This document shows positions 9,167-9,307 of a stretch of 64,000 bases of DNA, in pieces; within the stretch, counting starts at the first letter, position 1; every line of letters begins with the position of its first letter. The position numbers were made by a program, and so were the translations under genes. The notes under the pieces are model-generated. The model saw nothing but the letters and a program-made list of their open reading frames with translations, had not been told where the DNA came from and made no database searches. This DNA comes from a virus. Location of the stretch: IMG/VR virus record IMGVR_UViG_3300018412_000010, one strand, 5' to 3'.

Positions 9167-9307
9167 ATGATGATGTGTTGTTACACCAAAGTTTTCAGAT
9201 AAATCCAATCCTTAAAACGGTATCGGTCTGTATCGACGTGTCGCTTTCGACGCCCTCCTACTCACACTCCTTAGATGATGGCTACTTTTAAGCCTACATT
9301 TCATCAT
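9167..9307 (-). ncRNA. candidate ncRNA mimicking the 23S rRNA H43-H44 (L11-binding, GTPase-associated) domain, with internal insertion
   Basis: AUGUAGGCUUAAAAGUAGCCAUCAUCUAAGGA...GUGUAACAACACA closed by an AUGAUG/CAUCAU helix. Confidence 0.7.

Follow-up and report, generated by a model that had tools for sequence, protein, structure and literature searches.

The phage sequence analyzed here (IMG/VR record IMGVR_UViG_3300018412_000010; 64,000 nucleotides, and "the window" below means this whole stretch) carries a 141-nt RNA element that is a self-closed copy of helices H42-H44 of 23S rRNA, the GTPase-associated center (GAC) to which ribosomal protein uL11 binds and with which the translation GTPases make contact. 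The element lies on the minus strand at positions 9167-9307 of a gut-type phage, and its nucleotides are numbered below as in E. coli 23S rRNA. We conclude with high confidence that the element is the gene of a stable 141-nt non-coding phage RNA, either cut from or contained within a glutamyl-tRNA synthetase (GluRS)-phosphoesterase transcript, whose ends fold as a copy of the GAC with an additional helix between nt 1090 and 1091. Stable-RNA expression, uL11 binding and a physiological effect are properties that we infer for it. Tentatively, and with slightly under even confidence, we propose that the RNA would act in trans as a mimic that captures host uL11 as a sponge or particle.

The element is a free-standing copy of the ribosomal uL11-binding domain

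The original prediction described a free-standing mimic of the L11-binding domain with compensatory base swaps; the window bears this out, and the family covariation given below strengthens it. Both halves of the element align base for base with real 23S rRNA (that of locus L058, Lysinibacillus and Marinobacter), the first with nt 1049-1090 and the second with nt 1091-1110. Read along the minus strand, the element is closed by a 7-bp H42-like helix (AUGAUGA/UCAUCAU, 9301-9307 with 9167-9173) whose 5' strand AUGAUGA corresponds to nt 1049-1055 and whose pairs show compensatory changes in the family at 7/7 positions. The H43 hairpin (nt 1057-1081, 9275-9299) reads A AUGUA GGC UUAAAAGUA GCC AUCAU, where UUAAAAGUA is the loop holding A1067; in the family this hairpin is 100% paired, and 6/6 pairs covary in a sample ascertained from the 3' side. 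It is followed by a CUAAG turn (9270-9274) with the tertiary pair 1082-1086 (C-G, 9274/9270; family counts U-A 29, C-G 27, A-U 2) and by GAGU (nt 1087-1090, 9266-9269), the 5' strand of the H44 base, in which A1088 and U1090 are invariant in 68/68 copies. A variable insert of 75 nt (9191-9265) then leaves H44 as a helix between nt 1090 and 1091, its three basal pairs covarying in the family, and leads into a UUUG linker (9187-9190) that is absent from real 23S rRNA and kept in the family at 68/68, 68/68 and 67/68 for the three U's and 63/68 for the G. The H44 hairpin GUGUAACAAC (nt 1091-1100, 9177-9186) contains A1095 and a U1092-A1099 pair that accompanies U1072, and the element ends at 9167-9176 with ACA (nt 1101-1103) and the H42 3' strand UCAUCAU. 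A1101 is present in 68/68 family copies, whereas the three real 23S sequences read have U.

The H42/H43/H44 junction is thus complete in the window element, including the 1082-1086 pair and the 1072/(1092-1099) triple. H44, by contrast, does not run continuously through nt 1087-1102 with U1101, since the 75-nt insert and UUUG interrupt it at 1090/1091 and A1101 replaces U; the earlier placement of this insert near position 1089 is corrected accordingly. Over nt 1057-1104 the element is identical to Lysinibacillus 23S rRNA at 38/48 positions and to an E. coli-like 23S at 36/48, and pairing is kept by six of the ten differences from Lysinibacillus. Relative to that sequence, U-A is replaced by C-G at 1082-1086, C-G by U-A at 1092-1099, and G-C by A-U at 1055-1104. 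The first two of these swaps had been recognized in the original prediction, which missed the accompanying change of C1072 to U, the third partner of a known base triple with 1092-1099. By our own calculation, which assumes uniform base composition, about 5e-7 chance occurrences of the 20-nt H43 pattern GGCTTARAAGYAGCCATCAT are expected in 128,000 positions.

The flanks of the element are the GluRS and phosphoesterase genes, in agreement with the earlier remark that no other rRNA surrounds it. A search with the LSU rRNA model (RF02541), which had been suggested as a check, gave no match anywhere in the window at the Rfam gathering score or at E<=10, and the identical scan detected the real 23S rRNA of locus L279 at 1304 bits. 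A permissive Rfam scan of positions 8900-9600 returned chance-level matches only, and no Rfam 15 model matched the element at gathering or permissive thresholds.

Genomic neighborhood of the element in the window

The element occupies the 166-nt gap between the GluRS and phosphoesterase genes, both on the minus strand. Upstream, GluRS (9311-11014; Pfam tRNA-synt_1c 9.6e-64, Anticodon_2; class I, Glu/Gln-type) has its stop codon at 9313-9311, and the gene ends 3 nt before the element, which confirms the predicted position directly after a phage GluRS. Downstream, the Shine-Dalgarno (SD) sequence AGGAGGGGG (9156-9148) begins 11 nt after the element, close to the distance of about 10 nt first reported, and leads into a metallophosphoesterase gene (8452-9156 including the SD; PHROG metallo-phosphoesterase 2.6e-32 over residues 4-212 of the translation from 9144). 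The closing helix of the element and this SD do not overlap. We found neither a promoter nor a terminator of its own above chance level around the element, and it is probably co-transcribed with the two genes.

Several further observations concern the surrounding genes. The metallophosphoesterase reading frame (9108-9156, minus strand) has no canonical start ahead of its first metal-binding motif: the motif IIFFTGDTHG (GDTHG) is encoded between an in-frame stop (9165-9163) and the first ATG (9108), and the strong SD stands 3-6 nt ahead of an in-frame AUA at 9144, with AUU next at 9138. This arrangement suggests a non-AUG start or a sequencing error, and the start is probably the AUA at 9144. 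Directly after the phosphoesterase lies a Bax inhibitor-1 family membrane protein (7794-8537, minus strand; Pfam Bax1-I 5.9e-24). Other phage genes of the window encode a pre-neck appendage protein, a DnaB-like helicase, NrdD and a DNA polymerase. One gene, of the DNA polymerase III alpha type (2885-7063, minus strand), is split into a PHP part (6566-7063), an NTPase domain (5605-6540) and a polymerase body (2885-4453), and an ORF amid these pieces (4519-5355) has two LAGLIDADG-like motifs. The split looks like a homing-endonuclease, intron or intein insertion and not like stop-codon recoding. We had considered such recoding as a result of uL11 loss weakening RF1; it finds no support here, as the break is a LAGLIDADG endonuclease ORF with many stops and not a single recoded codon.

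Rfam detects six tRNAs in the window, the nearest of which is 5 kb upstream of the element on the same strand, and the element is thus not located in a tRNA array. An additional tRNA at 13145-13216 (minus strand) scores 40.6 bits with Rfam and is not called by ARAGORN. A 122-nt stretch at 17064-17185 (minus strand) matches the Rfam tRNA model over its whole length at 50 bits, likewise with no ARAGORN call, and shortly precedes the gene of a 491-aa DUF2828/DUF7788 protein (phrog_850, 'RNA-binding protein'; region 15401-17185, minus strand). The protein could be Ro-like and the stretch a tRNA-like Y RNA, and the same protein cluster also lies near the GAC RNA in loci L004 and L005.

No syntenic copy of the window element was obtained among GluRS relatives in IMG/VR and GenBank: the window GluRS had no relatives in IMG/VR, and its nearest GenBank relative, MT835514.1, has no element after its GluRS and a 21-bit degenerate match elsewhere.

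A phage-enriched family shares the split architecture

Exact matches to the H43 pattern were found at 71 loci of IMG/VR (L-numbers in this text are our locus handles). One of these, L058, is real 23S rRNA; the remaining 70 are split in the same way, by inserts of 18 to 299 nt, and include 46 distinct copies with the 3' half present, the window's own copy apart. A covariance model, R1, was built from 19 short members with its structure written from the rRNA model. R1 detects a single copy in the window, with a score of 109 bits (the window sequence is part of the R1 seed), and scores real 23S sites at 45-63 bits. A second scan pattern, from the family-specific 3' side (UUUG linker, H44 hairpin, ACAC), served to remove the bias of the first. 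Applied to IMG/VR (at least 120 stretches), it yielded 61 true members in 67 new loci among the matches listed; in prokaryote genome contigs, about 22-25 of 79 matches were true members, nearly all on MAG contigs. When R1 was run over five whole isolate genomes that the 3' pattern had matched, no member was found, four genomes giving only their own 71-nt 23S site and one giving no match, which indicates that the pattern matches in these genomes are chance. The family is strongly enriched in phages, and its hallmarks (the insert, UUUG and A1101) are common to well over 100 phage contigs together with complete cultured phage genomes.

Unannotated full members are present in the cultured Pseudomonas phage pf16 (93 bits, between tRNA-Asn and tRNA-Pro), Aeromonas phage 4_4572 (82 bits), Cronobacter phage GAP32 (80 bits), Xanthomonas phage XacN1 (79 bits) and Ralstonia phage RSP15 (70 bits), and BLAST matches extend to the Rak2-like phages CBB, BF, fHe-Yen9-04 and the pEa_SNUABM series. 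The pf16 copy has no match in Rfam 15, and we found no published description of the family in open-access papers and bioRxiv. A match in Paenibacillus phage Pd_22F was rejected as real 23S rRNA within the record: at least 1.4 kb of genuine 23S (L279, MZ092003.1 83277-84712; Rfam 1304 bits) lies near the record end, probably from host contamination or misassembly. Several 'phage' records of 2-7 kb in the same collection are plain rRNA.

Members occur in phages of very different GC content and hosts. A tRNA gene lies within about 500 nt in 25/46 distinct free-standing copies, with the nearest tRNA always on the same strand; about 40% of members lack a nearby tRNA, so that location in a tRNA array is a tendency and not a rule. 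The majority of members sit in the tRNA arrays of large phages, with the cultured phages pf16, GAP32, XacN1 and RSP15 among the carriers. An intrinsic terminator directly follows several members (L012, L038, L070), and an SD with an ORF closely follows a minority that includes the window, L157, L167, L023 and L014. Each of 20/20 phage records contained exactly one copy, 11 of these records being complete by CheckV in addition to the complete GAP32 genome. Single-copy occurrence, same-strand tRNA neighbors and terminators fit a stand-alone RNA. Among ORFs in the fetched flanks, no protein family was common to the neighborhoods beyond one related phage group, and adjacency to GluRS was not repeated in other members. 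Neither uL11 nor uL10 was found in carrier records (0/41 each), and therefore any uL11 or uL10 partner must be supplied by the host; weak bL12-like matches occurred in 2/41 of these records.

Covariation supports both the helices and the tertiary fold

The original prediction had called for homologs with covariation and a custom-model search, and R1 provided both. In 67 distinct sequences aligned to R1, 95.7% of modelled pairs were standard compared with 72.5% in shuffles, and compensatory changes on both sides were found at 19/21 pairs (seven in H42, six in H43, the 1082-1086 pair, three at the base of the insert helix and two in the H44 hairpin). The covariation score was 0.59, compared with 0.15 in shuffles (0/500 reached it) and at most 0.18 in slid registers; the alignment was fitted to R1 and so favors the structure, while identical swaps are visible directly in the raw sequences.

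The triple 1072/(1092-1099) takes the form C/C-G in 35 and U/U-A in 12 distinct copies of the first-collected free-standing set, with no mixed case, and RSP15 also has the U form. A1067, A1088, A1095, G1071, U1060 and A1077 are invariant or nearly so in the family, as are, without exception, G1093-U1094-A1095 and A1098 of the H44 loop. The triple switch without exception and the invariance of A1067, A1088 and A1095 indicate that the tertiary fold, beyond the helices, is under selection. Three traits distinguish the family from real rRNA, namely the insert helix at 1090/1091, the UUUG linker and A1101 (68/68), the last of which can pair with U1090. Members from gamma-proteobacterial phages have GAGU with A1101 (GAAU with A1101 in XacN1), in contrast to GAAA...U1101 in E. 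coli-like and Marinobacter 23S rRNA. Given that these phages keep the A1101 form of the family, we conclude that the copies are inherited among phages and not freshly captured from each host.

The insert is variable and the core is conserved

The shortest insert in the family is a bare 18-nt hairpin and the longest reach about 300 nt; no feature is common to the inserts of the whole family, in contrast to the almost invariant core. This range of sizes, together with the existence of copies that lack an insert, identifies the conserved core as the functional unit. In the window, the insert folds weakly into two small hairpins. At its base, GUGAGUAGG/UCUGAAAAC, AGUA faces GAA in what could be a loop-E motif of the generic type. 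No close relative of this insert was present among all fetched sequences, and a metagenome scan for window-like copies turned up several real rRNAs and 4-6 free-standing members, with no insert related to that of the window; no covariation was obtained for the window's own insert. Similarity of the window insert and 46 others to the rRNA operon was at chance level only. A mimic of the sarcin-ricin loop was rejected for the same inserts, which have no AGUA-N-GNRA-N-GA motif and no significant similarity to H95.

Some insert motifs recur. GUCACCCCGUAACUGGUAAGGAC is found in the otherwise unrelated L002, L003, L049 and L053, and AGACCCUUAGAG stands just before the UUUG linker in GAP32 (L072), XacN1 (L277), RSP15 (L278) and L008, with L022 also among the inserts listed with recurrent motifs. 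These recurrences suggest a few insert classes with their own structure. Two AT-rich metagenome contigs carry free-standing 71-nt GAC copies with no insert (L166:6760-6830, minus strand; L163:8275-8345, plus strand). Both have the U1101 of rRNA and are exceptions to the triple rule, with U1072 alongside C1092-G1099; Rfam detected no LSU rRNA around the L166 copy.

Discussion

The closest known counterpart of the phage RNA is the bacterial GAC itself, the 58-nt uL11/thiostrepton fragment at nt 1051-1108 of E. coli 23S rRNA. The two share the same three-way junction, near-identical loops (A1067, A1095), the same 1082-1086 pair and 1072/(1092-1099) triple, and A1088. The phage RNA differs in being free-standing with its own covarying closing helix, in its insert at 1090/1091 with UUUG, and in having A1101 for U; it is also phage-encoded, with one copy per genome, mostly among tRNA genes. 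This isolated 23S domain (1051-1108) folds by itself and binds uL11 and thiostrepton or other thiopeptides tightly. uL11 is needed for activation of RelA, and rplK (relC) mutants are relaxed.

On this basis we propose that the phage RNA acts off the ribosome, in trans, as an imitation of the uL11 site that would bind host uL11 or a different factor able to recognize the GAC. Given how tightly uL11 and thiopeptides are bound by the bare 58-nt rRNA domain on its own, the phage RNA should capture host uL11, which would give a free GAC-uL11 particle. Such a particle could lower uL11 on ribosomes and so hamper the RelA-dependent start of the stringent response, or it could offer a competing docking site for factors that recognize the GAC; either outcome would keep phage translation running. 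In favor of the uL11-mimic reading, the core is nearly identical to real 23S rRNA at the positions that contact uL11 and factors and those that determine the fold. A decoy role is also plausible in light of sequence context, being consistent with a single-copy stand-alone RNA, with the tRNA-array and terminator settings and with the lack of phage uL11 and uL10. Against it, exchange of ribosome-bound uL11 may be too slow for a sponge to work within one infection, and the insert and UUUG in H44 could disturb recognition by uL11 or factors. The window copy, moreover, lies inside an mRNA and not in a tRNA array, and MT835514.1, the nearest GluRS relative in GenBank, has no clear copy. The broader proposal, that large phages of hosts from many phyla make a free GAC RNA which recruits host uL11 and would serve as an off-ribosome dock or sink for RelA, translational GTPases and GAC-directed toxins, is possible, and we hold it with clearly less than even confidence.

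Another use of the same surface would be as a shield, with the RNA serving as a decoy substrate or tight trap for GAC-directed toxins (ADP-ribosyltransferases, nucleases) or for thiopeptides at H43/H44 and sparing the ribosomes that the phage needs. We regard this as unlikely. The very diverse GC content and hosts of the carriers fit a universal target. Against a catalytic toxin, a decoy would offer poor protection if it did not bind very tightly, and we know of no anti-phage defense aimed at the GAC. A toxin for exactly this site does exist, as Tre23, the one GAC-directed toxin known, ADP-ribosylates H44 at nt 1095-1098, within a loop whose G1093-U1094-A1095 and A1098 never vary in the family; it modifies only translating ribosomes, however, and not purified 23S rRNA or idle ribosomes (PMC8661411), which weakens a simple substrate-decoy model. 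The variable insert might instead be the working part of the RNA, with the GAC module, with or without uL11, as no more than a compact clamp for folding, stability or localization. Recurrence of GUCACCCCGUAACUGGUAAGGAC and AGACCCUUAGAG in some insert classes across unrelated phages would suit this arrangement, which we nonetheless judge quite unlikely given that inserts shrink to 18 nt (L018) or are absent (L166), that the nearly constant core is paired with no family-wide insert feature, and that the insert of the window is weakly folded and without close relatives. It is decidedly unlikely that the free GAC with host uL11 acts chiefly as a sink or platform that binds EF-G, EF-Tu, IF2, RF3 or RelA and alters their availability. 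The factor-contacting loops at A1067 and A1095 are conserved, and oligonucleotides of the GAC domain are reported to bind EF-G, but translation factors are very abundant and neither the window insert nor the 46 others supply a sarcin-ricin loop partner.

The original prediction also raised a cis-acting switch that would sense L11 and regulate the downstream phosphoesterase, a proposal that the varied downstream contexts of the family disfavor. The SD 11 nt behind the window element and the SD and ORF close behind L157, L167, L023 and L014 speak for it; most members, however, are followed by tRNAs, terminators or unrelated sequence, downstream genes have no family in common, and the closing helix leaves the SD free, so that we consider such regulation very improbable. 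Contamination of the assembly by rRNA reads, named at the outset as an outcome that would undo the finding, or survival of a dead rRNA fragment, can be practically discounted. Identity to 23S rRNA is high and real rRNA does contaminate phage records such as that of Pd_22F, yet the window has no flanking rRNA, compensatory changes are pervasive, and the same insert, UUUG and A1101 recur in well over 100 phage contigs and in complete cultured genomes.

Several known RNAs invite comparison with the uL11 mimic proposed here. The L10, L1 and L20 leaders likewise mimic the rRNA site of a ribosomal protein; these leaders are cis-regulatory 5' UTRs of cellular ribosomal protein operons with a loose likeness to rRNA, whereas the phage RNA is nearly sequence-identical to rRNA and usually stands alone. 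The window element in particular has no Rfam match, including to L10_leader (RF00557), and is not upstream of a ribosomal protein gene. Phage RNA decoys such as pseudo-ToxI (PMC3475682) and anti-CRISPR repeat mimics similarly imitate a host RNA to divert a protein, a putative function in our case; they copy defense RNAs of particular hosts, and the GAC mimic copies a universal ribosomal domain. GOLLD and ROOL are, like many members of the family, structured phage RNAs in or next to tRNA arrays with no assigned function. The phage GAC RNA is much smaller than these, has an obvious ribosomal model and shows no sequence or structure relation to them (no Rfam match).

The family is undescribed in Rfam 15 and in the searchable open-access literature and bioRxiv. 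Because the model for its fold and ligands is among the best-studied of RNA domains, the hypothesis is directly testable, and cultured carriers exist in pf16, GAP32, XacN1, RSP15 and Aeromonas phage 4_4572. Natural variation in the family also serves as a mutational map for the tertiary fold of the GAC and reveals a permissive insertion site at 1090/1091. If our reading is correct, a stand-alone viral copy of a ribosomal functional center would be a viral non-coding RNA of a new kind and would give phages a new means of interfering with translation, beside phage tRNAs, tRNA synthetases and ribosomal proteins. The broader proposal of an off-ribosome dock or sink, if true, would provide phages with a general RNA-based way of keeping host translation independent of stringent or abortive responses.
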